Translations under genes and position numbers: made by a program
Shown: positions 31,557 through 64,000 of the stretch, in pieces
Layout: every line of letters starts with the position of its first letter
How positions within the stretch are numbered: the first letter of the stretch is position 1
From: an uncultured Holophagales bacterium
GTDB lineage: Bacteria; Acidobacteriota; Thermoanaerobaculia; UBA5066
NCBI GenBank assembly: GCA_964561935.1
Contig: CAZLQX010000003.1
Span: 66,848-130,847 of the forward strand
Length of the DNA: 64,000 bases
Reading direction: 5' to 3'
The notes under the pieces: generated by a model
Seen by the model: only the letters and a program-made list of their open reading frames with translations
Database searches by the model: none
What the model was told of the DNA's origin: nothing

Positions 31557-31668
31557 GACGCCATCGTACGCCGGACCGGGAACGCGAGGCGTCTGCGCCG
31601 GTCGTGCTGCGGCGCAGTAAGATCGCGTCGGCGTCGTCCCCGGCCGGGGCGCGCCCGAGGAGGACGGC

Positions 31669-31860: not shown

Positions 31861-31903
31861 GGCCCCGCCGGAGCCGGCCGGCCCGCGCCTATCATCGGAA
31901 GCG

Positions 31904-33112: not shown

Positions 33113-33170
33113 GGCGAGGAGCGGCCCGCGCGCGGTCCGCCCGCGGGCCCGCTGGTAAGATCGTCGTTCA

Positions 33171-44173: not shown

Positions 44174-44251
44174 GCGCGGCGATTCTAGTGGGAAGGGGCC
44201 GCCGGTCCCCCCGCGCGCCCGGCGGTACGATGCCCGCACCACGAGGGAACG

Positions 44252-46825
44252 ATGGACGACGGGACGCGCGCGCGAGGGGTGAGGTGCGAGGCGCCGCCCG
44301 GCTGGGCGGAGGCGACCGCGCGCCGCGGCGCCACGGACCCTCTCGCCGCGCGGCTCGCCGAGGGAGGGCGGCTCGCCCCGCTCCGCTCCCTCCGCCTCGA
44401 GCCGCGACGCGGAGCGGGAGCGGGGACGGCGCGCCTCCACCTCCCCGAAGGGTCGGGGGACGTCGTGGTCGTCCTTCGCCAGCCGTCGGGCGCGCTCTCG
44501 ATCCACCGTCCCGAGGCGGGTGGGGCGTCGCGGCGCGGGGGCGCGACCGTCGACCTCCCCCTCCTCGCGCCGCGGGCCCGGCGTGCCGGGGAGGCGCCCC
44601 GCGGAGCCGTCGTCCTCGTCCTGGCCGCCGCCGCGCGCGTCGAGGCGCGCGCCGCGCGAACGCTCGCCCGCGTCTTCGAGGAGGCCGCGTTCCGGAGGGC
44701 CGGGCTCGTCGAGGGGCTCGTCCACGCCACGCCCGAGGGCTTCCGCGAGGGCCGGCTCGCCGCCGCACCGAGGGACCTCCTCGCGGCGCCCCCCGCGCGG
44801 AACCTCCTTCTCCTCCACGGCACCTTCTCGTCCACGGCCGCCGCGTTCGCGGGCCTCGCCCGGAGCGGCGTCCTCCCGGCGCTCGCGCCCCGCTACGGCG
44901 GCCGCGTCGTCGGATTCGACCACTTCACCGTGAGCCGGACGCCCGGGGAGACCGCGCGGAGGCTCGCTTCCGCGCTGCCGGCCGGCGGGATCTTCCTTTT
45001 CGACGTCGTCGCCCACTCGCGCGGGGGCCTCGTTCTCCGGACGCTCGTCGAGAGCCCCGGCCGGGTCGGGCCGTGTGCCGGCCGGTTCACCGCGGGGAGC
45101 GTCGTTCTCGCCGGGGTCCCGAATCTCGGCACGCCCCTCGCCTCACCCGACCGCTGGGAGCTCGCGCTCGCGGGCTGGCTGAACCTCTTCGACCTCCTCC
45201 CTCCCGCTCCCGCGCCGCTCCTCGGCGCCTTCGTCGTGGAGGCGCTCCTCTGGCTCGCGCGTCGCGTCACGACGCTCCTCCCCGGCCTCGCCGCGATGGA
45301 CCCGCACGGCGGGACGATCGCGGAGCTCGGCCGGAGCGCCCGGCCGGAGGCCTACTCGGCGATCGCGGCGCGCCACGAGGCGCGCGGAGCGCTCGCGCTC
45401 CGGCTCCTCGACGCCGGCGTCGGCTGCTTCTTCGGAGAGCCGAACGACCTCGTCGTCCCGACGGACGGCTGCGCGTCGCTCTCGCGGGACGGCACCGCAC
45501 GCGTCGCCGACGATCGGGTCGCGCTCCTCGGAACGAGCGGGGCGCCGGCGAGCCACTTCGACCTCCTCTCCTGCGAGGAGGGGGCGGCGTTCGTCGTCGC
45601 CGCGCTCGGCGGCGGGGGCGGGCCGGGCGGTCGCCGGGGAGCGCGGAGGTCGGCTCCCGGCGAGGACCGGGCGGTGCGGCAGGCGCGGCGAAGGCCGGCC
45701 TCCGCGGCTCGCGGCGGCGCGTCGCCCGCGCGTCTCGGCGAGCCGCGGCGCGAGGCGCTGGAGCTGACCCTCCTCCCCGGAGACCGGCGCGACGCGACCG
45801 CCCTCCTGTTCGCCAGATTCGGCGCGGCGCGCGCCGTTGCGGAGGTTCCGCGGAAGGGAGAGGCGTGGAGGGAGATCATCCGGGGACACGAGCGCCTCCG
45901 CGCCCACTACGACGGCGACGGGCGGCCGCTCCCGCCGGCGGCCGCGCTCGAGCGCTGGGGGGCGCTCCTCTTCGAGACCCTCTTCCCCGGCGAGGTGCGG
46001 AGGCTCTGGGACGCCGCGCGCGGGGCCGCGGGGGGCGTCCCGACGGACGTCGTCTTCACGTCGCTCCTCGACTGGGTCGCCGACAAGCCGTGGGAGCTCG
46101 CGTTCGACCCTCACCGCCGCGCGTGGCTCGCCGCGACCGAGGCGTGCTTCGTGAGGAACGTCGTCACGGCGATCCCGTGCGAGGCGCGGCCGCGCCGCCG
46201 CGGGAAGCTCGCGATCGTCGTCGCGGCGGCGCAGCCGGCGGGCCTGACGCCCCTCTCCTGGGAGGAGGAGGCCGAGGCGGTCCGGGCGGGGCTCGCGCCG
46301 CTCTCCGCCGCCGGCCTCGCCCGGATCCGCGTCGAGCGGGCCGTGACCGTCGAGGCGCTCCACCGTCTCGTCGCGGACGGGCCGTGCGACGTCCTCCACT
46401 TCGTCGGCCACGGCGCGTGGGACGCGGAGCGGAGGGTCGGGGCGCTCCTCTTGGAGTCCGCCTCCGGAGGCGCGGCGCCCGTCGAGGCGCCCGTCCTCCG
46501 ATCGCTTCTCGCGGGACGGGGTCTTTCGCTCGTCGTCCTGAACGCCTGCCAGAGCGCCCGCGGGAGCCGGTCCGACCTCGCCCGGGGGGTCGCGCCCGCG
46601 CTCGTCGCCGCGGGGGTACCGGCCGTCGTCGCGAACCAGTTCAGCGTCCTCGACGCCGCTGCGCTCGTCTTCGCGCGGGAGCTCTACCGGTCGCTCGCCC
46701 TCGGGCGGGCGCTCGGCGACGCGGCGCGCGAGGCGCGGCTCGCGGTGAGGTGCGACGCCGCGTGCGGGCCTCTCGACTGGGCCGTGCCGGTCGTCTACGC
46801 GCGAGACCCCGGCGCCGTCCTCTGA
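44252..46825 (+). CDS. fusion protein: N-terminal alpha/beta-hydrolase (lipase/PGAP1/DUF676-like, AHSRGG nucleophile elbow) plus C-terminal CHAT (caspase-like His-Cys) domain
   Basis: ATG with GAGGG upstream. N-terminal region has LLLLHGTFSST…DVVAHSRGGLV. C-terminal region has KLAIVVAAAQP…LHFVGHGAWD…LVVLNACQSA. Confidence 0.75.
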   Translation: MDDGTRARGVRCEAPPGWAEATARRGATDPLAARLAEGGRLAPLRSLRLEPRRGAGAGTARLHLPEGSGDVVVVLRQPSGALSIHRPEAGGASRRGGATVDLPLLAPRARRAGEAPRGAVVLVLAAAARVEARAARTLARVFEEAAFRRAGLVEGLVHATPEGFREGRLAAAPRDLLAAPPARNLLLLHGTFSSTAAAFAGLARSGVLPALAPRYGGRVVGFDHFTVSRTPGETARRLASALPAGGIFLFDVVAHSRGGLVLRTLVESPGRVGPCAGRFTAGSVVLAGVPNLGTPLASPDRWELALAGWLNLFDLLPPAPAPLLGAFVVEALLWLARRVTTLLPGLAAMDPHGGTIAELGRSARPEAYSAIAARHEARGALALRLLDAGVGCFFGEPNDLVVPTDGCASLSRDGTARVADDRVALLGTSGAPASHFDLLSCEEGAAFVVAALGGGGGPGGRRGARRSAPGEDRAVRQARRRPASAARGGASPARLGEPRREALELTLLPGDRRDATALLFARFGAARAVAEVPRKGEAWREIIRGHERLRAHYDGDGRPLPPAAALERWGALLFETLFPGEVRRLWDAARGAAGGVPTDVVFTSLLDWVADKPWELAFDPHRRAWLAATEACFVRNVVTAIPCEARPRRRGKLAIVVAAAQPAGLTPLSWEEEAEAVRAGLAPLSAAGLARIRVERAVTVEALHRLVADGPCDVLHFVGHGAWDAERRVGALLLESASGGAAPVEAPVLRSLLAGRGLSLVVLNACQSARGSRSDLARGVAPALVAAGVPAVVANQFSVLDAAALVFARELYRSLALGRALGDAAREARLAVRCDAACGPLDWAVPVVYARDPGAVL

Positions 46826-48626: not shown

Positions 48627-48661
48627 CGGGCGGCATGATACGGATTCGTAGAATCGCGGGA

Positions 48662-49315
48662 ATGAAGATCTTCCTCGTCCGCCACGGCGAGAGCGAAGGG
48701 AACCTCGGCGGGACGCTCCAGGGGTGCCGGCTCGACACGCCGCTGACGCGTCGCGGGCGGCGGCAGGCGGAGGCCCTCGCCGTCCGCCTCGCGGAGGCGG
48801 AGATCGACGACGTCGTCGCGAGCCCGATGGCCCGAGCCCGGGAGACGGCCGAGATCTGCGCGGCGCCCCACGGGCTCGCGGTCCGGCTCGACCTCGAGCT
48901 CGTCGAGTTCGACTGGGGCGTCTGGACCGGACTGCCGCTCGACGACGAGATGGACCGAAGCGTCGCGGAGCTCCGCGCGAAGTGGCGCTCGGGCGACGTC
49001 GACGCGGCTCCGCCGCGCGGCGAGAGCCCGCTCCTCGCGGGAGGGCGCGCCGCGCGGGTCCTTGCGCGACTCAGGGCCGTCCGGCCCGCGGCGCCCCTCG
49101 TCGTCGCGCACGGCCGCTTCAACAGGATCCTGATGGCGACGCTCCTCGGGCGCGATCTCTCCCGGATGGACGAGGTCCGCCAGAGGAACGGGTCGATCTC
49201 CGTCTTCGAATGGGACGGCGACGGCGCCGCGCGGCCCGTCGTCCTCGACGACGTCTCGCACCTCGGGGGCGACGTCTCGACGCCGACCGGGAAGGTCGAC
49301 TGGGTGAGGGCCTGA
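48662..49315 (+). CDS. histidine phosphatase (phosphoglycerate mutase-like) family protein
   Basis: Start re-set to MKIFLVRHGESEGN (the RHG catalytic motif). An alternative start is ATG 48635. Confidence 0.75.
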   Translation: MKIFLVRHGESEGNLGGTLQGCRLDTPLTRRGRRQAEALAVRLAEAEIDDVVASPMARARETAEICAAPHGLAVRLDLELVEFDWGVWTGLPLDDEMDRSVAELRAKWRSGDVDAAPPRGESPLLAGGRAARVLARLRAVRPAAPLVVAHGRFNRILMATLLGRDLSRMDEVRQRNGSISVFEWDGDGAARPVVLDDVSHLGGDVSTPTGKVDWVRA

Positions 49316-49337
49316 CGCGCCGCGGCGATCTACGGGA

Positions 49338-49518
49338 CGCGCCGCATGCCGCGGGGAGGCTCGTGGCGAGCCTCCCCGATCCGCTCCGGCTTCCCGATCG
49401 AGGGGAGGCGCCGGAGGCGCCGCGGGGAGGCTCGTGGCGAGCCTCCCCGATCCGCTTCGGGGTTCCCGATCGAGGGGAGGCGCCGGAGGCGCCGCGGGGA
49501 CGCTCGTGGCGAGCCTCC
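49338..49518. repeat. REP-like tandem repeat array: about 2.5 copies of a 71-72 bp unit, each with a perfect 11-bp stem / 3-nt loop hairpin
   Basis: Unit: GCCGCGGGGAGGCTCGTGGCGAGCCTCCCCGATCCGCT(C/T)CGG(C/GG)TTCCCGATCGAGGGGAGGCGCCGGAGGC. Copies start at 49338, 49409 and 49481, and the third is partial with one stem mismatch. The array lies between convergent genes. Confidence 0.7.
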
Positions 49519-49528
49519 CCGATCCGCT

Positions 49529-50854
49529 CTATGCCGAGAGCCGCGGGTTCAGGGCGATCGCCTTGTTGAGCGCCTCGACCGCCGCCTCGAACTTCTTGAG
49601 CCCCTCGTAGGTCGTCTTCATCGCGTACCACGCCTCGGCGTAGTCGCTCTTGAGGGCGACGGCCTTCTTCAGGTGCCCGAGCGCCTCGTCGAAGGCGAGC
49701 TCCCGGTTCGCGGCGAGGCCGAGCCCGTAGTGCGCTTCCGCGCAGGAGGCGTCGCCGTCGAGCGCCGCCCGGAATGCCTCGGCGGCCTCGGGGAGCTTCC
49801 CTTCCTCCAGGAGCGCCATCCCGTGCGCGGCGTGGACGGGGGCGCTCTTCGGGTCGATCTCGACGGCCCTCTCGAACGTCTTCTGGGCGTCGCGGAACTT
49901 CTTCATCCGCCCGTAGGCGAGGATCGCGCACGCGGGGAGGAGCGGGTCCTTCGGGAACTTGCGCGAGGCCGCCTGGGTGGTCTCGACCGTTCCCTGGAAG
50001 TCGCCCGACTCGAGGAGCGCCCGGGCCGTCTTCAGGTGGAGCTCCGGGTCGTCCTTGTGCTGCTCGAGCGCCGTCCGGAGCGGCTTCACCGCCGAGGCGA
50101 AGTCCTTCGCTTCGTAGAGGGCAAGGCCGAGCTTCCGGTGGACGGGAGAGGTGTCGGGCGCCGTCTTCGCCGAGATCTTGTAGTTCTCGAGGGCGGTCTT
50201 CAGCTTCCCGCCGAGCTTCATGAGGTCGCCGAGGTTCTCGAAGAGGAGAGGGTCCGTCGAGGTGCGCGCCGCCTTCCTCAGGCGGAGCCGGGCCCGCTCC
50301 GCGTCGCCGCGCGAGTAGTCGACGAGGGCGAGCATGTGAAGGAGAGGCGCGTCCTCCACACCTCCCTGCTCGGCCCACGACTCGACGTCCTTCAGGATCT
50401 TCCGCGCCTCCTCGGTGAGGGTCTTCGGGTGGTCCCCGGCGAGCTCCTCGAGCCGCTCGGGGAAGCCGTCGGCGGCGAGGCGCTGGCGGAGCGTCTCGAA
50501 GGCCTCCCGGGCCTTCCGGCCGAAGAAGAAGCGCTGGGTCGTCTGCTCCCGTTTCGCCCTGTCGGCGAGGGAGTCCCTCTCGGCCGTGGCCGCCGCGAGC
50601 TGCTCCTCGGCAGCGGCGAGGCGGGCCTCGAGGTCCGCGGACCTCTCGGCGAGGGCGGTCCGTTCCGCAGAGACGGTCTCCAGCTCGCGCGCGATCCGCG
50701 CCCTTTCGGTCTCGACCTCGGCGAGACCTTCCCGGAGCTTCGAGGCTTCCTCGGTCGAGGAGGTCTTCAGGGCGGAGAGGGAGCGGAAGAGGACGACGGC
50801 GGTGACGACGGCCACGGCCGCGAGGGCGAGGGCGACGAGCAGTCCTGTCGACAA
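49529..50854 (-). CDS. membrane-anchored coiled-coil / TPR-repeat protein
   Basis: TTG start with GGAGG 6 nt upstream. Has an N-terminal TM segment, a coiled coil, then 6 or more TPR units. Confidence 0.65.
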   Translation of the reverse strand: MSTGLLVALALAAVAVVTAVVLFRSLSALKTSSTEEASKLREGLAEVETERARIARELETVSAERTALAERSADLEARLAAAEEQLAAATAERDSLADRAKREQTTQRFFFGRKAREAFETLRQRLAADGFPERLEELAGDHPKTLTEEARKILKDVESWAEQGGVEDAPLLHMLALVDYSRGDAERARLRLRKAARTSTDPLLFENLGDLMKLGGKLKTALENYKISAKTAPDTSPVHRKLGLALYEAKDFASAVKPLRTALEQHKDDPELHLKTARALLESGDFQGTVETTQAASRKFPKDPLLPACAILAYGRMKKFRDAQKTFERAVEIDPKSAPVHAAHGMALLEEGKLPEAAEAFRAALDGDASCAEAHYGLGLAANRELAFDEALGHLKKAVALKSDYAEAWYAMKTTYEGLKKFEAAVEALNKAIALNPRLSA

Positions 50855-51053
50855 GGGGCTCCTCCGCGCGAAAGGAACGGCGCGACTCGGGATGTTACCT
50901 CCGGGAGCGCCCTCTGCGGAACGGAGAAGCCCTGTCCGGGCGGAGGGTCGTGCGGCGCGGTCGAGCGCTCCGCCGCGCCCGGCGGCGAACCGGCGCCAGG
51001 GGGCAGGTGGCGGCCGGAGGCCGCCGTTAGAATGCGGCGTGGCTCGCACCAGG

Positions 51054-53198
51054 ATGTCGCCCCGCTGCCTCGCCGTCGCCCTCGCCGCCCCGCTCGCGCT
51101 CCTCGCCCCGGCCCTGGCCGCCCAGGAGGTCAAGGGACGGGTCGTCGTCCTCGGCTTCGACGGGGCCGACCACCGTCTCGTCTCCCAGTACATCGCGGAG
51201 GGGAAGCTCCCGAACCTCGCGCGGCTCGCCCGGGAGGGAAGCTTCTCGCCCCTCCGGCCGACGATCCCCGCCCAGACGCCGGTCTCCTGGTCGACCTTCT
51301 CGACCGGGCTCTCCCCGGGCCGGACGCAGATCTTCGACTTCCTGAAGAGGGACCCGAAGACCTACCGGCCCGAGTTCGCCGTCGCGACGGAGGGGAAGAG
51401 GCGCTTCCTCCTCGGGAGCGGGAACCGGGCCGGCGCCGCGGCCCTCGGGGCGCTCCTCGCGTTCCTCCTCGTCTTCCTCCTCGGCCGCTTCACGGTGAAG
51501 CGGACGAAGCCCGCGGCCCTCGTCGCACTCGTCCTCGCGGCGCCCGCCGGCTTCTTCTCCTACCGCTTCGGCGGCCTCCTCCCCGAGTCGCTCCAGACCG
51601 TCCACAACAACCGGAAGGGGACGCCGTTCTGGGAGGTCGCCGGTAAGAGCGGGATCCGGTCGGTGGTCCTCCATGTCCCGGTCACCTTCCCGGCCGTCGA
51701 CTTCGACGAGGGGCGGCTCCTCTCCGGGCTCGGCGTCCCCGACGTGCGGGGGCGGATCGGCACGCCGAGCTACTACACGTCCGACCCGTTCTTCTCGCCC
51801 CGGAACAAGAACGAGTTCTCCGTGGAGCTCGTCCGCCTCGAGTCGAACGTCGGGACGATCCGGACGGAGGTCTTCGGCCCCTACAACAAGCTCTTCGGCG
51901 AGCCCCCGGTCATCAGGACGCCGATGACGCTGACGGTCCTCCCGGACGGCGGGCGCCTGAGGATCGAGCCGAAGGGGAGCGAGCCGGTGACGCTGAAGCC
52001 GGGCGAGTGGTCCCCCTGGGTCACCTTCACGTTCGAGTTCAACCCGGTCGTCAAGCTCTCCGGCATCGGGCGCTTCCACCTCGCGAAGCTCGCGCCGGAG
52101 ATCGAGCTCTACCTCTCGCCGATCCACTTCAACCCGGCGAAGCTCCCGCCGGGCGTCAAGATCACGGCCCCCGGCGGCCTCGCGAAGGACCTCGCGAAGC
52201 GCTTCGGCCTCTACAAGACGATGGGCTGGTCGATCGACACCTGGTCGATGAGCGAGGAGACGATCGACGAGCCGACGTTCCTCGACGACGTCACCTTCAC
52301 GGTGCAGCAGTACCGGAAGATGATGGACGGGCTCCTCGCCGAGAAGGACGTGAAGCTCTACGTCCAGGTCTACGAGTTCACGGACCGGGTCGGCCACGTC
52401 ATGTGGCGCTTCCTCGACCCGACGCACCCGGCGTACGACGCGGAGAAGGCGGCGATGTTCGGTCCCTCCGTGGAGCGGAACTACGTCCAGATGGACGAGA
52501 TCGTCGGCGACGCGCTGAAGGAGCTCGGGCCGGACGACCTCCTCCTCGTCTGCTCCGACCACGGCTTCTCGAGCTGGAGGCGGTCGATCAACTACAACAC
52601 CTGGCTCGTCGAGCACGGCTACCTCGCGCTCAAGGGGGGCGACGAGAAGCAGGCGGACCTCGAGCAGCTCTTCGGCCAGGGGGAGTTCTGGCCGAACGTC
52701 GACTGGTCGCGGACCAAGGCCTACTCGATGGGCCTCGGCGAGATCTACGTGAACCTGAGGGGCCGCGAGTCGCAGGGGATCGTCGAGCCGGGGGCCGAGT
52801 ACGACGCTCTCCGGCAGGAGATCCGGGTGGGGCTGATGGCGATCGTCGACGAGGCGACCGGGCGCCGCCCCGTCGAGCGCGTCTACACCCGCGAGGAGGC
52901 CTACGGCTCGTTCGACCCGAACGTCATCCCGGACATCTTCGTGACGAACAGCGAGGGCTACCGGGTCTCGTGGCAGGCGAGCCTCGGCGTCGTCACGCCG
53001 GAGCTCTACGAGGAGAACGTCCAGGTCTGGTCGGGCGACCACTGCTCGGTCGACCCCGACGTCGTCCCCGGGATCCTCCTCTCGAGCCGGCCGCTCCGGA
53101 AGGAGCCCCGACCGAACATGGCCGACGTCCCCGCGACGATCTACAAGGCGCTCGGCCTGACGCCGCCCGAGCCGCTCGACGGGGAACCGCTCTTCTGA
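51054..53198 (+). CDS. secreted alkaline-phosphatase-superfamily protein (type I phosphodiesterase/nucleotide pyrophosphatase-like) with internal hydrophobic insertion
   Basis: Has a signal peptide. AP-superfamily metal and nucleophile motifs are present: VVLGFDGADH, PTIPAQTPVSWSTFSTG, LLVCSDHGF. Confidence 0.75.
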   Translation: MSPRCLAVALAAPLALLAPALAAQEVKGRVVVLGFDGADHRLVSQYIAEGKLPNLARLAREGSFSPLRPTIPAQTPVSWSTFSTGLSPGRTQIFDFLKRDPKTYRPEFAVATEGKRRFLLGSGNRAGAAALGALLAFLLVFLLGRFTVKRTKPAALVALVLAAPAGFFSYRFGGLLPESLQTVHNNRKGTPFWEVAGKSGIRSVVLHVPVTFPAVDFDEGRLLSGLGVPDVRGRIGTPSYYTSDPFFSPRNKNEFSVELVRLESNVGTIRTEVFGPYNKLFGEPPVIRTPMTLTVLPDGGRLRIEPKGSEPVTLKPGEWSPWVTFTFEFNPVVKLSGIGRFHLAKLAPEIELYLSPIHFNPAKLPPGVKITAPGGLAKDLAKRFGLYKTMGWSIDTWSMSEETIDEPTFLDDVTFTVQQYRKMMDGLLAEKDVKLYVQVYEFTDRVGHVMWRFLDPTHPAYDAEKAAMFGPSVERNYVQMDEIVGDALKELGPDDLLLVCSDHGFSSWRRSINYNTWLVEHGYLALKGGDEKQADLEQLFGQGEFWPNVDWSRTKAYSMGLGEIYVNLRGRESQGIVEPGAEYDALRQEIRVGLMAIVDEATGRRPVERVYTREEAYGSFDPNVIPDIFVTNSEGYRVSWQASLGVVTPELYEENVQVWSGDHCSVDPDVVPGILLSSRPLRKEPRPNMADVPATIYKALGLTPPEPLDGEPLF

Positions 53199-53284
53199 GG
53201 CTCCGCGCGGCCCTCCTCCTGGCGCTCCTCGCGGCCCCGCCGGCCGGGGCGCAGGAGGAGGGGGCGCGCCCGCCGGCCCGGGAG

Positions 53285-54364
53285 ATGGGCGGGGCGGAGC
53301 GGCGGCGGGAGCTCGAGCTCCTCCGGCAGCGTCTCGCCCTCCTGAAATCCCGCTACGAGACGACCCGCCGGAAGGCGGTCGACACCCGCGAGCAGCTCGA
53401 GGCGGCCGAGGCGAACCTCGAGCTGAGGACCGCCGAGAGGCGGCTCCTCGAGCTCCGGGCCGCCGAAGCCGAGCGCGCCGCAGTGCAGGCGCAGTCCGAC
53501 CGGGACGTGGCCGTTCGCAAGAGCGGCGCGCTCCGGGCCGACGTCGCCGTGCGGCTCCAGGCCCTCTACCGGATGGGGCGGCTCGGATACCTCCAGACGC
53601 TCGCCTCTGCCGACTCGGGAGAGTCCTTCCTTCGCGGGCTCCAGCTCCTCTCATTCCTCGCGGCCCGGGACGTGCGCCTCCTGCGCGCCTACGAGGGCTC
53701 CCTCGCCGAGCTCGCCGCGAAGGAGAGGAGCCTCGCGGCCCTCCGCGCCGCGATCGCGAACGTCGCCGCCGAGGCGCGAGCGGCGGAGCGGGAGCTGGCG
53801 CGGGCGCGGGCCGAGAAGGCGGCGCTCCTCGCGCGGCTCGAGCGGACCGCGGAGTCGCAGCGGACGCGGGTCGCGGCGCTCGAGGAGAAGACCGACCGCC
53901 TCGCGGCCCTCCTCGAGCTCCTCGAGACGCGGGGGAGGTCGCTCCCGGCCGGCTCGGCCTCCATCCGGCGGTACAAGGGGGCCCTCGACTGGCCCGCCGA
54001 GGGGGAGGTCGTCGTCCCCTTCGGCCGGATCGCGAACCCCCGCTTCCCGAAGACGTTCCTGAGGTCGAGCGGCTGGACGATCGACGTCCCCACGGGCACT
54101 CCGGTGCGGGCGGTCTTCGCGGGCGACGTCGTCTACGCCCAGTGGCTGAAGGGCTACGGGAACCTCGTCGTCCTCGACCACGGGGACGGGGTCTTCACCC
54201 TCTACGGGCACCTGATGACGGGGACCGCGGCCCGGGGGACGCGGGTCTCGCTCGGCGAGGTCGTGGGCAGGGTCGCCGATCCGCCCGAGGAGGAGGTCGC
54301 CGGCGTCTACTTCGAGATCCGCGAGAGCCGGGCCTCCGTCGACCCCCGCTCGTGGCTCAGGTAG
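53285..54364 (+). CDS. EnvC-like murein hydrolase activator (coiled coil plus degenerate M23/LytM domain)
   Basis: Coordinates start at the first in-frame ATG. A signal-peptide-like segment from 53195 has no ATG/GTG/TTG start. The LytM region VVLDHGDGVFTLYGHL is present and the HxH motif is replaced (VYFEIRE). Confidence 0.7.
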   Translation: MGGAERRRELELLRQRLALLKSRYETTRRKAVDTREQLEAAEANLELRTAERRLLELRAAEAERAAVQAQSDRDVAVRKSGALRADVAVRLQALYRMGRLGYLQTLASADSGESFLRGLQLLSFLAARDVRLLRAYEGSLAELAAKERSLAALRAAIANVAAEARAAERELARARAEKAALLARLERTAESQRTRVAALEEKTDRLAALLELLETRGRSLPAGSASIRRYKGALDWPAEGEVVVPFGRIANPRFPKTFLRSSGWTIDVPTGTPVRAVFAGDVVYAQWLKGYGNLVVLDHGDGVFTLYGHLMTGTAARGTRVSLGEVVGRVADPPEEEVAGVYFEIRESRASVDPRSWLR

Positions 54365-54437
54365 GTGGCGTCCGGGGCCTTCGCCCGGCGGGCCGGGCCC
54401 GTGCAACCGGCCCGGCGCGATCCCGTATCATCGTCGC

Positions 54438-55757
54438 GTGACGAAGTCCCGGCTCGCGTCGTTCCTCGGCTCGCTCGCCCTCCTCGGCACCCTCTTCCTC
54501 GTCCTCCCCGGGCTCGGCGCGGACGAGAAGAAGGAGAAGGGGGGGAAGGACGGCCTCTACCGACCGCTCGGCCTCTTCGCGGAGGTCCTCTCGCTCGTCA
54601 AGGGGAACTACGTCGAGCCGGTCGAGGTGACGCCCCTGCTCCAGGGCGCGTTCGCCGGGATGACCGAGGCGATGGACCCGTTCTCGGAGTACGTTCCGCC
54701 CGGCAGGATGGCCGCCTTCGAGGCGGCGAGGGCGGCCCGCGGGAAGGCCGACCACGTCGAGTCGGGCCTCGTCCTCGCCCGTCGCGGCGGGTACCCCGTC
54801 GTCGTGACGGCCGTCCCAGGGAGCCCCGCCGCCGTGGCAGGGATCCGGACGGACGACGTCCTCGAGAAGGTCGGGGGCGTCTCGGCGCGGGGCCTCGCCC
54901 TCTGGGAAGTGGAGGCGGCCCTCTCGGGCAAGCCGGGCGGCCGCGCGAGCCTCCTCGTCGTGAGGGATGCGAAGCCGCGGCGGCAGACCGTCGAGATCGT
55001 GCGCGCCTCGTGGACGCCCGCCCTTCCGTCGGCCGAGCGCGTCTCCGGGGAGCTCGTCGTCCGGATCCCGGCTTTCGTGCCCGGGACGACGGACGCGCTC
55101 GCGAAGCTCCTCGCCCCTCTCGACCGGACGAAGCCGCTCGTCCTCGACCTTCGCGGCAACGCCCGGGGCGAGTGGGACGAGGCGGCGCTCGCCGTCTCGC
55201 TCCTCGGCCCGGCCGGCCCGGTCGGAGACCTGAAGGGGCGGAAGGTCGCGACGAGGAGCTGGAAGGCCGAGCCGGGTCGACGCGTCCACGAGGGCGGGCT
55301 CGTCCTCCTCGTCGACAGCGGCACGGGAGGTCCTGCCGAGCTCTTCGTCGCGGCGCTCCGCGAGGCCGCGGCGAAGGAAGCGGGCTTCGACGTCGCCGCG
55401 GCGGTTCGGCGCGAGGAGAGGAAGGCCGAGAGCGGTCTCGACGACGATCCGGGCGCGGCTCCGGCCCCGGCCGTCGAGAAGGGGAAGCTCCGGGTCCGCG
55501 TCGTGGGCGAGCCGACGTTCGGGATGGGGATCACGCAGGAGGTCGTCCGCCTCGCGAGCGGCGGCGCGCTCCGCATCACCGTCGGCAAGGTGAGGACCGC
55601 AGCCGGCCGGACACTCTCGCCGCGCGGCGTCGCTCCCGACGACCGCGTCTTCCACGTCCTTCCCGAGGAGGGGGAGGAGGGGAAGCTCCCGGATCCCTTC
55701 CTCGAGCGCGCCCTGAAGGTCGTCACCGAGCTTCCCGCCGCTCCGCGCGCCTCGTGA
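54438..55757 (+). CDS. S41 family C-terminal processing peptidase homolog (CtpA-like) with PDZ; catalytic Ser/Lys motifs substituted
   Basis: GTG start, signal peptide and PDZ domain. The S41 core reads LVDSGTGGPAELF (canonical GSASAAE) and GEPTFGMGITQ (canonical TFGKG). Confidence 0.75.
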   Translation: MTKSRLASFLGSLALLGTLFLVLPGLGADEKKEKGGKDGLYRPLGLFAEVLSLVKGNYVEPVEVTPLLQGAFAGMTEAMDPFSEYVPPGRMAAFEAARAARGKADHVESGLVLARRGGYPVVVTAVPGSPAAVAGIRTDDVLEKVGGVSARGLALWEVEAALSGKPGGRASLLVVRDAKPRRQTVEIVRASWTPALPSAERVSGELVVRIPAFVPGTTDALAKLLAPLDRTKPLVLDLRGNARGEWDEAALAVSLLGPAGPVGDLKGRKVATRSWKAEPGRRVHEGGLVLLVDSGTGGPAELFVAALREAAAKEAGFDVAAAVRREERKAESGLDDDPGAAPAPAVEKGKLRVRVVGEPTFGMGITQEVVRLASGGALRITVGKVRTAAGRTLSPRGVAPDDRVFHVLPEEGEEGKLPDPFLERALKVVTELPAAPRAS

Positions 55758-56680
55758 CGGCGGCCCGCCGGCGCGGCGGCTGCGGTCGGTCGCTCGGCCT
55801 CCTCGTCGGCCTCGCGGTCCTCCTCGCGCTCGCAGCGGGCGCCGTCCGGCTCCTGCGCTCCCGCGCCGAGGCGCCTGTCGCCGGTCCGACCGGGGAGCGC
55901 CCGGGGGCGACGCCGTCGCCGACGCCCTCGCCGACGCCCCGGCCGACGCCTCGCCCGCGGACCGTGGCCGTCCCCGCCGATTTCGAGCCGGCGGCTGGCG
56001 AGGGAAGGGGGGCCGTCGCCGTCGTCATCGACGACGTCGGGAACGCCGACGGCTCGATCGAGCGACTCGCACGCCTCGAGGGACCGCTCGCGATCGCGGT
56101 CCTCCCCGGGGCGCCGCGGGCCCGCGAGGCGGCCGCCCTCGCGCGGCGGAAGGGCTGGGACCTCCTCGTCCACCTCCCGATGGCCGGCGTGCGAGGCCCC
56201 GCGGAGCCGGGGACGATCTCCTCGGACGACGACGACGCGGCGATCGCGCGGCGGGTCGAGGAGGCGATCGCGTCCGTCCCCGGTGCCGTCGGCCTCAACA
56301 ACCACCAGGGTTCCCTCGCGACGGCCGACGAGCGTGTCATGCGCGTCGTCCTGACCGTCGTCCGCGACCGTGGCCTCTTCTTCCTCGATTCCAAGACCTC
56401 CGCCGCGAGCGTCGCCGAGGCCGAGGCACGCGCCCTCGGCCTCGCGACGATCCCGCGGGACGTCTTCCTCGACGACGCCCGGGCCGAGGCGGCGGCGGGA
56501 GGGGCGCCCGAGGCGCGCGCGGCGGCGTGGACGCGCGCTCTCGCGATCGCGGCCTCGGGCGGGCACGCCGTCGTCATCGGTCACCCGAACGCGGCGACGG
56601 TCGACTTCCTCGGGAAGGCGCTTCCCGAGCTCGGGCGGAAGGGCGTCCTCCGGGCGCGCATCTCCGAGCTCGTCGACTGA
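55754..56680 (+). CDS. divergent polysaccharide deacetylase family protein (YibQ-like)
   Basis: GTG start overlaps the ctpA-like stop (GTGA). Has an N-terminal TM segment and PT-rich linker, then the YibQ core (AVVIDDVGN…LNNHQGS…VIGHP). Confidence 0.75.
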   Translation: MTAARRRGGCGRSLGLLVGLAVLLALAAGAVRLLRSRAEAPVAGPTGERPGATPSPTPSPTPRPTPRPRTVAVPADFEPAAGEGRGAVAVVIDDVGNADGSIERLARLEGPLAIAVLPGAPRAREAAALARRKGWDLLVHLPMAGVRGPAEPGTISSDDDDAAIARRVEEAIASVPGAVGLNNHQGSLATADERVMRVVLTVVRDRGLFFLDSKTSAASVAEAEARALGLATIPRDVFLDDARAEAAAGGAPEARAAAWTRALAIAASGGHAVVIGHPNAATVDFLGKALPELGRKGVLRARISELVD

Positions 56681-56791
56681 CGGGCGCTCCCGCGCGGGAC
56701 CCGGGAGGGGCGCGCGACCTCGCCCCGCCGGGCGTCGCGGGCTATCATCACGGCGCTCCAGCGCACGGAAGAGACGACGGGGGTTGCCGCG

Positions 56792-57211
56792 ATGGAACTT
56801 TTCGACGAGATCGAGCTGACGGACGACGAGGCGCGCGCGATCGGGCGGGCGATGCTCGCCGTGGCGCGGGCCGACGGCGCGGCCGAGCCCCGCGAGGTCG
56901 CGCTCATCGAGCAGCTCGCGCCGGTCGACCCGGCGGCTCCGGCCCCGCAGGCGGCGGAGCTCGCGGCGGCGATCCCGCGTGCGGACGCCCGGGAGCTCCT
57001 CCTCCGTTCCGCCCTCCTCGTCGCCCTCGTGGACGGCGACTACAGCGAGGCGGAGAAGGCGCTCGTCGCCGACTGGGCCGGGGCGTTCGGCGTGGCGCCC
57101 GCGCGGCTCGAGGAGCTCGCGAGCTCGGTCAAGGCGTTCCTGATGTCCCCGCTCGTCCCGCTCTCGAACAGCCCCGCGGTCGCCGAGGTCTCGAGGAAGC
57201 TGAGGGTCTGA
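56792..57211 (+). CDS. TerB-like / DjlA N-domain-like protein
   Basis: 139 aa acidic helical protein with the TerB-like repeats (ELTDDEARAIGRAMLAVARADGAAEPREVALIEQL … DGDYSEAEKALVADWAGAFGV). Confidence 0.55.
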   Translation: MELFDEIELTDDEARAIGRAMLAVARADGAAEPREVALIEQLAPVDPAAPAPQAAELAAAIPRADARELLLRSALLVALVDGDYSEAEKALVADWAGAFGVAPARLEELASSVKAFLMSPLVPLSNSPAVAEVSRKLRV

Positions 57212-57310
57212 ACCGGCGCCCCGGCGCGCGCCGGGCGGGCCGGGGGCGCCTCCCGCGCACGGGCTCCGGCCGCCTTTCGTCCGCGACCGCCGCGCGTAGA
57301 CTCCCGGGCC

Positions 57311-59824
57311 ATGCGTGGCCGCCCGTTCGCCCCGGCGCTCTTCCTCGCCCTGATCGCCCCGGCCGCCGTCGCGGCCCCGCCGTCGCCGTCGGCCTTCCTG
57401 CGGAAGCCGGTCGGCGCGGACCGGACCCTCGCCGACTGGCGCGAGGTCGTCTCCTACTTCCGGGCGCTCGACGCCGCCTCCGACCGTGTCGAGGTCTCGA
57501 CGATCGGGCGGTCGACGCGCGGGGAGGAGATGGTCCTCGCCGCGATCTCGAGCCCGGAGAACCTCGCGGGGAAGGAGCGGATCCGCGCGATCGCGCGGAG
57601 GCTCGCGGACCCGCGCGGCCTTTCCGACGCCGACGCGCGGGCCCTCGTCGCCGAGGGGAAGGTCGTCCTCCTCGTGACCTGCGGCATCCACGCGAGCGAG
57701 ATCGGCGCCTCGCAGATGGCGATGGAGTGGGCGCACGCCCTCGCGACGGCCCAGGACGCGGAGACGAAGCGCCGCCTGTCGGAGGTCGTCCTCCTCCTCG
57801 TCCCGTCGCTGAACCCCGACGGCCACGCGATGGAGGTCGACTGGTACCGGAAGAACCTCGGCACGCGGTGGGAGGGGAGCCGGATGCCCTGGCTCTACCA
57901 CCACTACGTCGGCCACGACAACAACCGCGACTTCACCCAGCTCACGCAGGCCGAGACGAAGGCGATCAGCCGCGTCCTCTACCACGACTGGTTCCCGCAG
58001 GTCTTCCTCGACGAGCACCAGATGGGGACGAACGGGCCGCGCATGTTCGTGCCGCCGTACGCCGACCCGCTCGACCCCGACATCGACCCGCTCGTCATCC
58101 GCGAGGTGAACCTCATCGGGTCGCTCATGTCGATGCGGCTCGAGCAGGCGGGAAAGGCGGGCGTCATCTCGGCGTGGGCCTTCGACGCCTCCTGGCCCGG
58201 CGGGTCGAAGAACACGGCCTGGTGGAAGAACGTGACGGGAGTCCTGACCGAGGTCGCCTCGGTCAGGGTCGCGACGCCCGTCGAGGTCCCCCCGTCCGAG
58301 CTTCGCGGCGGCGGGAAGGGGCTCGTCACCTACGGGACGCAGTCGAACTTCCCGAACCCCTGGCGGGGCGGGACGTGGCGGCTGCGCGACGTCATGGACT
58401 ACGAACGGGTCGCCTCGGACGCGATCCTCGAGTTCTGCGCGACGCACCGGCCGGACGTCCTCTCGAACATGCTCGCGAAGGCCCGCGCCTCGATCGGAGC
58501 CGCGGCCCCGGGCGAGACGTACCGGATCCCGAGGGCGCAGCGCGACCCGGCGGCCGCCCGCGCGCTCGCGGCGCTCCTCGTCGAACACGGCGTCGAGGTG
58601 TTGGCCGACGCGAACGGGGACGCCTGGGTCCCCCTCGCGCAGCCGTACGGGCGCTTCGTCCGCGAGATGCTCGAGCCGCAGCGCTTCCCCGAGGTGAAGC
58701 TCGTGCCGGGGAAGGAGATCGTCGCCCCGTACGACGTCACGGCCTGGAGCCTCCCGCTCTCGATGGGCGTGACCGTCGGGAAGGGGACGCTCCCCGAAGG
58801 GCTGGCCCCCTGGAAGGCGCCGGCGACGCCGGCCCTTCCCGCCGCGGAGACGTATGCGCTGGGCCCTGGGAGCCCGGAACGCTGGAAGGTCGTCGCCGCG
58901 GCCCGGAAGGGGGGCGAGGTCTCGCTCCTCCCGGCGGCCGCGGGAAGCCTCCCGGCCGGGACGCTCCTCCTCGACGCGGGGGCGGCGAAGGCCGGCGCGG
59001 CCGTCGCGGGCGAGCTCGGTCTCGCCCTCGAGCCCCTCGCGGCGGCCCCCGCCGGCGCAGCGAGGCTGCGCACCCCGCGCGTCGGCCTCTACAAGCCGTG
59101 GCTCGCGTCGATGGACGAGGGGTGGACGCGGTTCCTCCTCGAGCGGTACGGCTTCGCGCCGGTGACCCTCGACAACGCGGGCCTCCGAGCCGGGAAGCTC
59201 GGCACGCGCTTCGACGTGATCGTCCTTCCCGACGTCGAGAAGGAGGTCCTCGCCGGCGGGAAGCCGAAGCGCGACGAAGGCGAGATGCGCTACTTCCCCG
59301 AGCCGCGGCCCGAATACGCGGGCGGGCTCGGGAAGGAAGGGTCCGCGGCGCTGAAGGAGTTCGTCGAGGGAGGCGGGACGCTCGTCGCCCTCGCCTCCTC
59401 CTCCGAGTACCTGATCGACGAGCTCGCCCTCCCCGTGAGGAACGCCCTCGCGCACGTCCCCTCCTCGGAGTTCCTCTGCCCGGGCGGCCTCGTGAGGATC
59501 GAGCTCGGCCCGGCGCACCCGGTCACGTTCGGCCTTCCCGAGTCGCTCCCGGCGTTCCTCGACGGGCCGCTCGCCTTCCAGACCGCGATCCCGGGGGCGG
59601 AGATGACGCGGACCGTCCTCGCCTCGTACCCGGAGCAGGCTCGCGACGTCCTCGTCTCGGGCTGGATCCGCGGCGAGGAACGGCTCGCGCGGAACGCCGC
59701 GGCTGTCGCCCTGACGCTCGGGACGGGAAAGGTCGTCCTCCTCGGCTTCCGGGCCCAGCACCGCGCGCAGACGCTCGCGACGTTCCCGTTCCTCTTCAAC
59801 GCCCTCGTCTGGTCCGTGCTCTGA
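57311..59824 (+). CDS. secreted M14-family zinc carboxypeptidase-like protein with large C-terminal extension
   Basis: Has a signal peptide. M14 Zn-binding motifs are present: CGIHASEIG (HxxE), SLNPDGH, …HQMG. Confidence 0.8.
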   Translation: MRGRPFAPALFLALIAPAAVAAPPSPSAFLRKPVGADRTLADWREVVSYFRALDAASDRVEVSTIGRSTRGEEMVLAAISSPENLAGKERIRAIARRLADPRGLSDADARALVAEGKVVLLVTCGIHASEIGASQMAMEWAHALATAQDAETKRRLSEVVLLLVPSLNPDGHAMEVDWYRKNLGTRWEGSRMPWLYHHYVGHDNNRDFTQLTQAETKAISRVLYHDWFPQVFLDEHQMGTNGPRMFVPPYADPLDPDIDPLVIREVNLIGSLMSMRLEQAGKAGVISAWAFDASWPGGSKNTAWWKNVTGVLTEVASVRVATPVEVPPSELRGGGKGLVTYGTQSNFPNPWRGGTWRLRDVMDYERVASDAILEFCATHRPDVLSNMLAKARASIGAAAPGETYRIPRAQRDPAAARALAALLVEHGVEVLADANGDAWVPLAQPYGRFVREMLEPQRFPEVKLVPGKEIVAPYDVTAWSLPLSMGVTVGKGTLPEGLAPWKAPATPALPAAETYALGPGSPERWKVVAAARKGGEVSLLPAAAGSLPAGTLLLDAGAAKAGAAVAGELGLALEPLAAAPAGAARLRTPRVGLYKPWLASMDEGWTRFLLERYGFAPVTLDNAGLRAGKLGTRFDVIVLPDVEKEVLAGGKPKRDEGEMRYFPEPRPEYAGGLGKEGSAALKEFVEGGGTLVALASSSEYLIDELALPVRNALAHVPSSEFLCPGGLVRIELGPAHPVTFGLPESLPAFLDGPLAFQTAIPGAEMTRTVLASYPEQARDVLVSGWIRGEERLARNAAAVALTLGTGKVVLLGFRAQHRAQTLATFPFLFNALVWSVL

Positions 59825-59989
59825 CGCGCGCCCCCCCCCGGGCGGGATCGGGCGCCGCGGGCGCCCGTTCCCGCCGGGGACCCGGGGCTCGCGACCTCGG
59901 CCGAGGGGACAGTGCCGTGTCTTGCGTCACGGTCTCGGCGCCGCGTCGGACCTATCTTCCCGGGATACCAGTCTTACCGGGAGGTCGAG

Positions 59990-60763
59990 ATGAGCTATCC
60001 GCTTCTCCGAGAGAGAGATCTGCTCCCCGCCGTCGGAGTGCTCCAGAAGCTGCTGCAGAGAACGGGCGCGTCGATCGACGCCGACGGCGACTTCGGTCCG
60101 AGGACGAAGGCGGCCGTCGTCGCGTTCCAGCGGCCGCGTGGGCTGGTCCCCGATGGCGCCGTCGGGGAGAACACGTGGCCGCGGCTCGCCGCCGGGGCCC
60201 CGGGTCTTCGGGTCGTCGACTGCGTCGACGTCTTCGACCCGTCGCTCGCGAGGCTCGAGGAGCGGGACATCCGGCGGGCCGGCGGGAACCCGATCGTCAT
60301 CGGCGGGATGAGCGGCGGCGTCGAGCAGGCCGTCAGCGACATCCTTCGGACGGCGGCCCCGGGCTCCGTCTTCCTTCTGAGGTTCCACGGCCACGGCGCG
60401 CCCGGAGTGGCCGGGATCTCCGACGGCCACGGGGTCGCGGGCGAGCACCACTCGAGCCTCAGCGCCGGGAACCTCGCCGCGCTGCGCCCCGTCATCGCGA
60501 GGCTGCGCCCGATCTTCGGCCCCTGGGGCTGCGTCCAGTTCATGCACTGCTCGACGGGACGCGGCCCGAGCGGCCGCGCGATGCTCCGCAACATCGCGAA
60601 CGAGCTCGGCGTGCCCGCGTCGGCCGGCGTCGTCGACCAGCTCGGCGGAGGGCTGACGACGTTCCGGTTCGAGGGCCCGACGTTCACGGCCGTTCCGGGA
60701 GGCGGGGCGCTTCGCGACTGGAGCCGCGGCCTCCCGGACTTCGTGCAGATGTCCGTGGCCTAG
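59990..60763 (+). CDS. peptidoglycan-binding (PG_binding_1) domain protein with uncharacterised C-terminal His/Cys-containing domain
   Basis: GGGAGG lies 5 nt before the ATG. PG_binding_1 signature DGDFGPRTKAAVVAFQRPRGLVPDGAVGENTW. The C-terminal region has …LRFHGHG… and …VQFMHCSTG. The stop codon abuts the IS end. Confidence 0.65.
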   Translation: MSYPLLRERDLLPAVGVLQKLLQRTGASIDADGDFGPRTKAAVVAFQRPRGLVPDGAVGENTWPRLAAGAPGLRVVDCVDVFDPSLARLEERDIRRAGGNPIVIGGMSGGVEQAVSDILRTAAPGSVFLLRFHGHGAPGVAGISDGHGVAGEHHSSLSAGNLAALRPVIARLRPIFGPWGCVQFMHCSTGRGPSGRAMLRNIANELGVPASAGVVDQLGGGLTTFRFEGPTFTAVPGGGALRDWSRGLPDFVQMSVA

Positions 60764-62227
60764 TACTACTGTGTTGCGAAAGTCGGTGGTTTCGTGCGAG
60801 CGGGGGGGCGATCCGTGATGGCTCTCTGGCGGCAGGGACATCGGGGAATCCCCTCCAGAAGTACGAGAGCGATTCGTACGCGCATGGTCTCGATCGACTC
60901 CGGGACGTGTCGCTGCGGACGGATCGGGAGCACCCCTCGGGCGGAAACCTCCGGGTACGGCAGCGACCTGGAACGGGAGTCCGAGGAGCGAAACGCCTGA
61001 GGGGGAAGAAAGGCCCCGTTCCACGGCGAGGAAAGCGTATGCGGCTATGCAGAGCGTCGCGTGATGGTGGAAGCCCCGCCATCCACGGCCTTCGTAGTGG
61101 TCCAGTCCGATCTCGTCCTTCAGTTCCTCGTAGTCGCGCTCGGTGCGCCACCGCAGCTTTGCCGTCCGCACGAGCGTTGCGAGCGGCGTGTTCGGCGGCA
61201 GGGTCGACAGGAAGTACTTCGTGGGCTCCTTCTGGCCCGAGGGCCACTCGATCAGAAGCCATTCCTCGGGGCGGGCCTCGGCTCGCCAGTAGTCGCGAAG
61301 AGCGGGCCGGACGCGGACCGCATGGAAGCGCGACGTGAGCGGGGCTTTCGTGCCCTGCCGCCAGGTCACGGATCGGAAACGCGCGCGCCCGATTCGCTGC
61401 GCGAGCGCCTCGACGGAGATCGGCTGATGGGTCGCGTCTCGAGAGAGAAGCCTGGGGGGGCGTCCCTTGCCGGAAGAGGCAGGGGCAGGCAGAGGGCCCT
61501 CGCCCGGAGGCCAGACAGTCGTCGCAGCCTGGATTCCGACGGCGTATTCGAGGCCGAGCGCGGTGACGTCGTCACGGAAGGGCGTGCTGTCGCCGTATCC
61601 GGCATCGGCCAGGAGAACCCCTTTGGGGACCCCATCCTCGACCGCGGTTCGAAGCTGGGCCGTGGCGATCTCGAGCTTCGTCCGGAAAGGGACTTCGTCA
61701 GGGACACCCGCCTTCATTCGCCGCTCCCGGTCGGCCGCCCAGACCTCCGGCAGATAGAGCTCGTAGGCGATGGGCAGGCTGAGGCGCTCGTTGGCCACGG
61801 AGAGGCTTACGGCGACCTGGCAGTTCTCCTGCTTTCCGAGAACACCGCAGTGCTGACGCGTGACTCCCACCGAATGGCGTCCCTTCTTCGGAATGCCCGT
61901 GTCGTCCACGATCCACGCCTTCACACCGCCGTGCGCCTGGAACACGGGCAGGGCGTAATCCCGGATCGCCGCCAGAAGCCTGCGGTCGCTCCAGGGCGAA
62001 TCCGCCACCAGGTGGTGCATGCGCTGATGGACCGAGCGCACGTCGCCAGGCGCGAGCCGCGCGGCCATCGGCTCCACACTCTTCCGCTCCCCGGGCAGAA
62101 GAAGCCCGGCGCAGTAGAGCCGAAGCGGCTCAGCGCGATCCGAATGCCCGACCGCCCTCATCAAGACCGACGTGCAGTTTTCGAACCGTTCGCTCGGCGA
62201 CGGGGCGAAGCCGGCGCTTGTGGCCAT
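60764..62227 (-). CDS. IS701-family DDE transposase; no in-frame stop inside the element
   Basis: N-terminus MATSAGFAPSPSERFENCTSVLMR…WIVDDTGIPKKG…LLADAGYGD…GWRGFHHHATLCIAAYAFLAVERG. The ORF stays open to 59927 and runs antisense through the PG-binding gene. The 3' end given here is the putative IS boundary. Confidence 0.55.
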
Positions 62228-63910: not shown

Positions 63911-64000
63911 GGGAGCCTCCTCGTCGCGGCGCCGGGGAGAAGATCCCCTAGAATGAAGCGCCCGAACGAGGCCTTATGGCAGAAGCAACCAGGACGATCA

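Follow-up and report, generated by a model that had tools for sequence, protein, structure and literature searches.

A four-gene cluster in a 64,000-nucleotide (nt) stretch of DNA from an uncultured Holophagales bacterium (contig CAZLQX010000003.1; hereafter the window, whose numbering is used throughout) is probably the Thermoanaerobaculia form of the envC-ctpA-sddA(yibQ) module for splitting septal peptidoglycan, built as two translationally coupled pairs behind leaderless-type promoters. Its core, envC-ctpA-yibQ, has precedents in clusters of Pseudomonas aeruginosa and Escherichia coli. What is new relative to it is that the S41 protein is a conserved dead protease. The four genes, g1 to g4, lie on the same strand at 51039-56680 (+) in a region of ~74% G+C and were assigned to families by their Pfam matches. 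Lengths are given in amino acids (aa):

51039-53198 (+): g1, predicted membrane-tethered, periplasm-facing NPP-type phosphodiesterase of the alkaline phosphatase (AP) superfamily; 719 aa from GTG 51039, 714 aa from ATG 51054
53195-54364 (+): g2, predicted EnvC-like murein-hydrolase activator with signal peptide, coiled coil and degenerate LytM domain; 389 aa, CTG start
54438-55757 (+): g3, CtpA-fold S41/PDZ pseudo-protease; 439 aa, GTG start
55754-56680 (+): g4, YibQ/SddA-type divergent polysaccharide deacetylase; 308 aa, GTG start

An earlier reading of the sequence alone (the sequence-only reading) had proposed these four families, and Pfam bore out all of them (Phosphodiest, Peptidase_M23, Peptidase_S41 and Polysacc_deac_2, respectively); it had also placed the end of the cluster correctly at 56680. 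Genes g1 and g2 overlap by 4 nt (CTGA), as do g3 and g4 (GTGA), and a 73-nt spacer separates g2 from g3. The g3/g4 overlap recurs in the gene calls of the related loci L001-L003.

The g3 protein has the CtpA fold and lacks its catalytic residues

In Pfam, g3 matched Peptidase_S41 (E 4e-21) together with PDZ_6 and a CtpB_N-like domain, while in NCBIfam it matched S41 models only, all of them below threshold. Its best sequence match among solved structures was P. aeruginosa CtpA (E 1e-27). The position of the nucleophile in this alignment was set by the PDB chains 7rpq and 7rqh, in which the wild-type motif GGSASAAE and the S302A motif GGSAAAAE are otherwise identical. Residue alignment placed G298 of g3 (55329-55331) in the column of CtpA Ser302, M363 (55524-55526) in that of Lys327 and F82 (54681-54683) in that of His84. 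CtpA activity in vivo is abolished by either S302A or K327A and reduced by H84A (PMC11021448). Among the g3 homologues listed, which are 56-100% identical to it, the Ser302 column is Gly and the Lys327 column is Met in 120 of 120. The degeneracy of the S41 member claimed by the sequence-only reading thus survives residue-level alignment, with no active-site Ser, Lys or His in the aligned columns. We infer from the loss of all three residues that g3 cannot act as an S41 protease; it does not have the Ser-Lys dyad of an S41 C-terminal processing protease, and we filed it as a non-peptidase homologue.

The S41 core fold and the PDZ domain, by contrast, are present by both Pfam and Foldseek. An AlphaFold2 (AF2) model of g3 was predicted with a mean local confidence (pLDDT) of 81 and a global score (pTM) of 0.81, and in Foldseek it matched CtpA, CtpB and the D1 protease with E values of 1e-24 to 1e-27 and TM-scores of up to 0.73. 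From these structural matches and the lost catalytic residues, g3 appears to have retained fold and PDZ domain while its chemistry has gone. Alignment also revealed a second departure from CtpA:

55365-55490 (+): charged insertion of ~42 aa in g3, separating the former Ser motif from the former Lys motif

The two motifs are 64 residues apart in g3 as against 24 in P. aeruginosa CtpA and in more distant relatives, and the 120 listed homologues likewise have an insertion here, of about 40 residues. AF2 models the insertion as a helix (319-331) followed by a low-confidence loop (333-346), and it is limited to the closer clade, at about 49% identity or above.

An exhaustive search of representatives clustered at 50% identity returned one full-length g3 cluster and then fell to relatives at 30-42% identity. 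Ser and Lys occur together in just 27 of the 135 S41 representatives that were aligned. In most of the others the nucleophile column is Gly and the base column varies among H, R, Y, L, M and V, and canonical proteases first appear at about rank 70 and below. By its residues, then, g3 belongs to a large clade of apparently dead (Ser-to-Gly) S41 proteins. A full-text literature search turned up no description of inactive bacterial S41 homologues, nor of a dead S41/CtpA protein acting as a regulator, which does not by itself prove that none exists.

Among distant members of this clade, an M23 gene adjoins the dead S41 gene in locus L088 and probably in L089. In L088 (4852-9092) the Ser-to-Gly homologue stands directly after the M23 gene and before a Peptidase_S55 gene, and in L090 (4329-7278) another such homologue is divergent from mltG/yceG. 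The dead S41 homologues of L084-L087, which include one Bryobacterales genome, have no wall-related neighbour.

The four-gene order is conserved across Thermoanaerobaculia

The synteny set comprised 80 species-level Acidobacteriota loci, in which gene order was judged by tblastn where the flanking DNA sufficed. The genome scan for relatives used patterns specific to the dead S41 motif and is uninformative on active S41 genes in those genomes. Nearly all the genomes that yielded homologues of g3 and g1 were assembled from metagenomes and bear the label Thermoanaerobaculia, "Holophagales" or Acidobacteriota; the nearest homologues are 77-92% identical. The order and strand g1-g2-g3-g4 are kept in nearly all of the loci with enough flank (about 70 Thermoanaerobaculia/Acidobacteriota genomes) and persist in a clade in which g3 identity is just 34-39% and g1 identity 50-57%. 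The outer flanks of the cluster vary between clades, and the recurrence of the same order within differing flanks argues that the arrangement is not due to chance. This comparison with other Acidobacteria had been set as a check on the sequence-only reading, and it came out in favour of a conserved four-gene order.

The most conserved of the four genes is g1. For 55 close pairs, the median ratios of nonsynonymous to synonymous substitution rates (dN/dS) of g1, g2, g3 and g4 were 0.19, 0.15, 0.22 and 0.28, which indicates that all four genes, the dead S41 gene included, are under purifying selection.

An EnvC-like factor and a deacetylase with an intact zinc site flank g3

The Peptidase_M23 match of g2 (E 9e-23) covers residues 292-384:

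54068-54346 (+): degenerate LytM (M23) domain of g2 (Pfam)

EnvC (NF008644) was its best match in NCBIfam. Residues 58-388 of g2 align with full-length Vibrio cholerae EnvC in the FtsEX-EnvC complex (8tzk_E), and g2 aligns also with EnvC of P. aeruginosa and E. coli (chains 8i6o_E and 6tpi_A). As in EnvC of E. coli, V. cholerae and P. aeruginosa, other residues stand at the HxxxD and HxH zinc-ligand positions of g2. Relative to lysostaphin, the ligand positions of g2 are S291, T295, G370 and Y372, and VYF or LYF in place of HxH is common to g2 and the EnvC chains 8tzk, 8i6o and 6tpi. Like EnvC, g2 combines a LytM domain without zinc ligands with a coiled-coil region and, given the CTG start, a secretion signal. 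Residue-level alignment confirms the LytM degeneracy proposed earlier. The accompanying idea of two pseudo-enzymes in one cluster holds as a count; degeneracy of the LytM domain, however, is the defining and expected state of EnvC, and of the two only that of the S41 protein is unusual.

In Pfam, g4 matched Polysacc_deac_2 (PF04748, the YibQ family) over the full length of the profile (E 9e-61). Its D93, D94, H140 and H184 correspond to all four zinc ligands of BH1492 (2nly), whereas Atu2773 (2qv5) is without them. The equivalent ligands of E. coli SddA (YibQ) are D31, D32, H78 and H123 (PMC12440217). An N-terminal membrane anchor and a Pro/Thr-rich linker complete the protein. As expected of an SddA/YibQ gene, which carries PF04748 with four zinc ligands and is linked to envC on the same strand within 2 kb, g4 begins 1.4 kb past the end of g2 on the same strand, and this linkage is kept in about 75 loci. 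Judged by its ligands, g4 should be catalytically competent.

The upstream gene encodes a predicted membrane-tethered phosphodiesterase

In Pfam, g1 matched Phosphodiest (PF01663, E 8e-31); no NCBIfam model matched either g1 or g4. Its catalytic motifs, D36, T75 (the Thr nucleophile), D444/H448, D502/H503 and D662/H663, vary little or not at all among 42 homologues, and g1 has an AP core fold with a Thr nucleophile and six metal-ligand residues. Source annotations of the family say only "alkaline phosphatase family protein" or "predicted AlkP superfamily phosphohydrolase/phosphomutase", and the literature on COG3379 yielded nothing relevant. A weak profile alignment to the Xanthomonas (Xac) NPP agreed at T75 and at the DHG motif. 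On reading the sequence, we found that the NPP motif around HG..N is not conserved. A sequence search with g1 against solved structures gave nothing at E < 0.01, and a profile search gave just insignificant matches to NPP and autotaxin. Identity to members of the NPP family (Xanthomonas NPP, the alkaline sphingomyelinase ENPP7, and ENPP6) is 18-19%, with no significant sequence match to any solved structure, and g1 differs from them by a ~100-aa beta-rich domain and a transmembrane hairpin inserted in the core:

51414-51572 (+): transmembrane helical hairpin within the AP core of g1 (residues 121-173 in the 714-aa numbering)

Hydropathy peaks at residues 124-149, and AF2 models helices at 121-148 and 151-173 with pLDDT of 87-94. 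Together with the N-terminal signal peptide, the hairpin would place both halves of the catalytic domain in the periplasm. The secretion and membrane insertion of g1 proposed from the sequence are both consistent with these features. A coupled, apparently periplasm-facing phosphodiesterase with an intact active site ahead of envC is a new feature of this cluster.

The start codon of g2 probably overlaps the stop codon of g1

The only canonical in-frame start of g2 past the g1 stop is ATG 53285, which lies beyond a signal-like peptide (LRLRAALLLALLAAPPAGA, followed by QEE). This peptide is present only if translation begins at CTG 53195, where it starts, and the CTG overlaps the g1 TGA as CTGA. 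Across loci L001-L062 the junction is likewise CTGA in 45 and GTGA, with an ordinary start codon, in 8 more divergent ones; in both groups the signal-like peptide always begins at the overlap codon. Several loci contain no ATG, GTG or TTG at all ahead of the mature part of EnvC, and the called envC start in L001 is a TTG within the signal peptide. Most likely, g2 is initiated at the codon that overlaps the g1 stop, which in this clade is CTG, and initiation at the CTG would probably proceed by termination-reinitiation.

Two other explanations of the junction were rejected. Starting g2 at ATG 53285 deletes the conserved signal peptide. A programmed frameshift fusing g1 to g2 is contradicted by distant relatives, which have an ordinary GTGA overlap at the site, and a g1-g2 fusion would leave EnvC on the wrong side of the membrane.

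Promoter-like boxes precede g1 and g3

Comparison of loci identified two conserved boxes:

51028-51033 (+): -10-like TAGAAT, 5 nt before the g1 GTG; putative leaderless promoter
54403-54431 (+): putative internal g3 promoter, with -35-like GCAACC (54403-54408), a 17-nt spacer and -10-like TATCAT (54426-54431), 6 nt before GTG 54438

TAGAAT followed by 5 nt and then GTG or ATG is conserved before g1 across the main clade of related loci, and this spacing places the g1 start at 51039. The start at ATG 51054 (714 aa) given in the sequence-only reading is therefore less likely than GTG 51039 (719 aa). Before g3, CGTATCAT stands 6-7 nt ahead of the GTG in essentially all related loci, in a g2-g3 spacer that otherwise varies from 18 to 95 nt; G(A/C)AACC is retained in the close clade only. 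Such hexamers are rare: both strands of the window together contain just 21 of the form TAnnAT, for example, besides the two boxes, at 48649 (+), 48640 (-), 37497 (+) and 44187 (-). Thirteen of the 21 lie 4-9 nt before the start of an open reading frame (ORF) of at least 100 aa, compared with 4.7% of random positions, which suggests -10-only promoters giving leaderless mRNAs as the simplest reading in this genome. An Rfam scan of the window gave zero RNA family matches, and a consensus scan of 49000-60000 found no intrinsic-terminator-like sites and no full sigma-70 consensus promoters.

Two leaderless units, g1-g2 and g3-g4, thus appear to make up the cluster. The single operon proposed earlier is probably too simple a description, given the conserved -10-like TATCAT before g3: an internal promoter, which the sequence-only reading had itself named as counting against it, is likely. 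This expression architecture, with CTG coupling and two predicted leaderless-type units, is also new.

Comparison with known envC-linked clusters

The closest parallel is envC-ctpA-PA5135 (yibQ/sddA) of P. aeruginosa, which contains the same three families as g2-g3-g4 in the same order and on the same strand. It has been described as an operon in which the terminal part of envC probably contains or adjoins a promoter for the S41 gene (PMC12569750). The box before g3, internal to the present cluster, parallels that ctpA promoter. P. aeruginosa CtpA is, however, catalytically active through Ser302/Lys327 and has the TPR lipoprotein LbcA as its partner, whereas g3 has Gly, Met and Phe at the active site together with the 42-aa insertion. 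The coupled NPP-type gene upstream, the CTG start of envC and the leaderless-type promoters further distinguish the present cluster.

In E. coli, gpmM-envC-sddA(yibQ) links envC to a PF04748 deacetylase with an AP-superfamily gene directly upstream, as here. SddA has the same four zinc ligands as g4 and is controlled by the S41 protease Prc (PMC12440217); it is a denuded-glycan deacetylase that is co-expressed with envC and digested by Prc (bioRxiv 10.1101/2025.02.18.638797; PMC12440217). The E. coli cluster, however, has no S41 gene, and SddA has a long disordered C-terminal tail that is missing from g4, which instead has its N-terminal anchor and Pro/Thr-rich linker. GpmM is a cytoplasmic glycolytic mutase, in contrast to the periplasm-facing, membrane-tethered, NPP-like g1. 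The relation to the E. coli cluster drawn in the sequence-only reading is thus real, but the equivalence of g1 and gpmM is limited to superfamily and position.

Degenerate LytM factors such as EnvC, NlpD, ActS and DipM regulate wall hydrolases as pseudo-enzymes, and g2 is one of them. By analogy, g3 would extend the same idea, a catalytic fold kept for binding and regulation, to another hydrolase fold. There is a precedent for a dead member kept in an envC-linked module: Atu2773 of Agrobacterium tumefaciens is a YibQ homologue without zinc ligands in an envC operon (PMC12440217). There the deacetylase is dead; here the S41 protein is dead and the deacetylase intact.

Points against the module and alternative explanations

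Several observations weigh against reading the locus as a coupled envC-ctpA-sddA module. The NCBIfam EnvC score of g2 is 77.8 bits against an equivalog cut-off of 270, which is why we call g2 "EnvC-like" and not an EnvC equivalog, and the ORFs scanned in the window include no ftsEX or amidase gene. Six related loci carry envC-S41-yibQ without g1 upstream (in one of them, L060, MoxR, DUF58 and transglutaminase genes occupy that position), so g1 is not obligatory. In some lineages (L026, also L024, L052, L028 and L002/L020), unrelated genes lie between g2 and g3, which indicates that the module can be split into its two pairs; in L026 (2041-6001) the intervening genes encode a Ser/Thr kinase with PD40 repeats and a Y-family (IMS) polymerase. 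The more distant dead S41 proteins do not adjoin envC or yibQ. As to expression, the CTGA at the g1/g2 junction follows in part from the conserved TTC codon for the C-terminal Phe of g1, the genome being rich in GC, and the -10-like boxes are deduced from sequence, the consensus scan having called none.

The most serious alternative concerns g1, which might have no function in the wall module; it would then be a periplasmic phosphodiesterase or phosphatase for general phosphate scavenging, linked to envC only by a common promoter. The genomes that have envC-S41-yibQ without g1 would fit such a role, as would the phosphate-scavenging PafA and PhoK, AP-superfamily enzymes that share the g1 fold, and we found no clue to the g1 substrate beyond the fold. 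To our knowledge, no wall role has been demonstrated for E. coli gpmM either. We nevertheless consider this explanation rather unlikely, though not negligible: more than 50 species-level genomes, from clades of 50-92% g1 identity, preserve the 4-nt stop/start overlap between g1 and envC, envC appears to lack an independent start codon or promoter-like box, g1 is better conserved than the other three genes, and its membrane hairpin favours a membrane-proximal substrate.

It is less likely still that g3 is not a pseudo-enzyme but a hydrolase with a non-canonical site, for which S294 or T296 with K384 would be candidates. In its favour, 38 diverse family members all share these three residues, g3 has preserved its fold and PDZ domain, and a related cluster (P0129) retains Ser and Lys within an otherwise divergent motif. 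The nucleophile column is nevertheless uniformly Gly among the g3 homologues, and the general-base column, Met in g3 and scattered in related clades, does not behave like a conserved catalytic residue. The His84 equivalent is lost as well, and loss of either Ser302 or Lys327 by itself is enough to inactivate CtpA. We therefore prefer to regard g3 as a dead protease.

That g1 has replaced the cytoplasmic mutase GpmM both in position and in evolution, within a single four-gene operon, is very improbable, since g1 carries a signal peptide and a transmembrane hairpin, matches Phosphodiest and not Metalloenzyme or iPGM_N in Pfam, lacks the marks of GpmM/GpmI (Metalloenzyme with iPGM_N, TIGR01307, cytoplasmic location) and ranks NPP enzymes above iPGM among its matches, while the conserved promoter-like box ahead of g3 speaks against a single operon.

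Neighbouring genes

One gene outside the cluster may belong to the system:

49529-51193 (-): membrane-anchored coiled-coil and TPR protein, divergent from g1 (multiple Pfam TPR families)

Its divergent position upstream of g1 is conserved in the close clade, at 65-82% identity. The TPR adaptors LbcA, NlpI and WthA partner S41 proteases in Proteobacteria (PMC12772221), and by analogy the protein may be a partner of g3.

Further upstream, a histidine-phosphatase-superfamily gene (His_Phos_1, GpmB/CobC-like) lies at 48662-49315 (+), 2 kb from the cluster, and is conserved in L003; a TAnnAT box implies that it starts at ATG 48662. We rejected it as a member of the operon, as the TPR gene on the opposite strand separates it from g1, and it is probably unrelated. 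After g4 come two genes that keep this position in the closest clades alone (L003-L017), one for a small TerB-like protein (56792-57211, +) and one for a secreted, 837-aa M14 carboxypeptidase-like protein with an HxxE motif (57311-59824, +). Between the M14 gene and a MazG gene (63080-63973, -) are encoded a PG_binding_1-domain protein (59912-60763, +) and, within 59930-62227 (-), a DDE_5 transposase. The M14 and MazG genes are adjacent in L003, and the segment 59912-62227 is probably an insertion specific to this genome.

Elsewhere in the window, a large ORF with DUF7379 and CHAT (caspase-like) domains (44189-46825, +) is unrelated to the cluster, and at 30342-33641 a cyclic-nucleotide-binding/TPR protein (-) adjoins two GGDEF-domain ORFs (+), the second of 161 aa.

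Discussion

The features described above can be combined into a mechanism. In this scheme, g1 would be a bimetallo NPP-type phosphodiesterase or pyrophosphatase, anchored by its signal peptide and hairpin on the outer side of the inner membrane, that hydrolyses a membrane-proximal phosphodiester or pyrophosphate. Translation of g2 would start at the CTG overlapping the g1 stop, making EnvC synthesis dependent on translation of g1. As a non-catalytic LytM factor, g2 would by homology activate cell-separation amidases, presumably under FtsEX, and g4 would deacetylate the denuded glycan strands left by the amidases. Most likely, g3 would serve as a non-degradative binding or scaffolding regulator that contacts other proteins by the surfaces of its PDZ domain and tunnel. 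It might bind the deacetylase g4, with which it would be co-translated, or else EnvC and further hydrolases of the wall, the same proteins that catalytically active Prc or CtpA break down in Proteobacteria.

A more far-reaching version of this scheme, which we offer as speculation that is unlikely to hold in full, is that dead CtpA-like PDZ proteins constitute an unrecognised class of pseudo-protease regulators, the S41 counterpart of the degenerate LytM factors, one of which pairs stoichiometrically with SddA in Thermoanaerobaculia. EnvC would then be made only by CTG reinitiation after the NPP enzyme, which would itself work at the division site, processing an envelope or lipid component linked by a phosphodiester.

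For genome annotation, the cluster points to two kinds of error. Dead S41 proteins carry the annotation "S41 family peptidase" or "carboxyl-terminal processing protease", and the envC start is mis-called in these genomes, with the result that the signal peptide is lost from automatic annotation. Promoters across this lineage, moreover, seem to consist of a -10 box alone and to yield leaderless mRNAs. For the biology of the phylum, which is poorly studied, g1 represents a well-conserved periplasmic enzyme that appears to be linked to cell division. Prc and CtpA are a known post-translational brake on wall hydrolases and SddA in Proteobacteria, and the S41 gene in that operon position is here conserved yet non-catalytic across a whole bacterial class. 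This conserved dead S41 protein suggests a second, non-proteolytic regulatory mode of the S41 fold.

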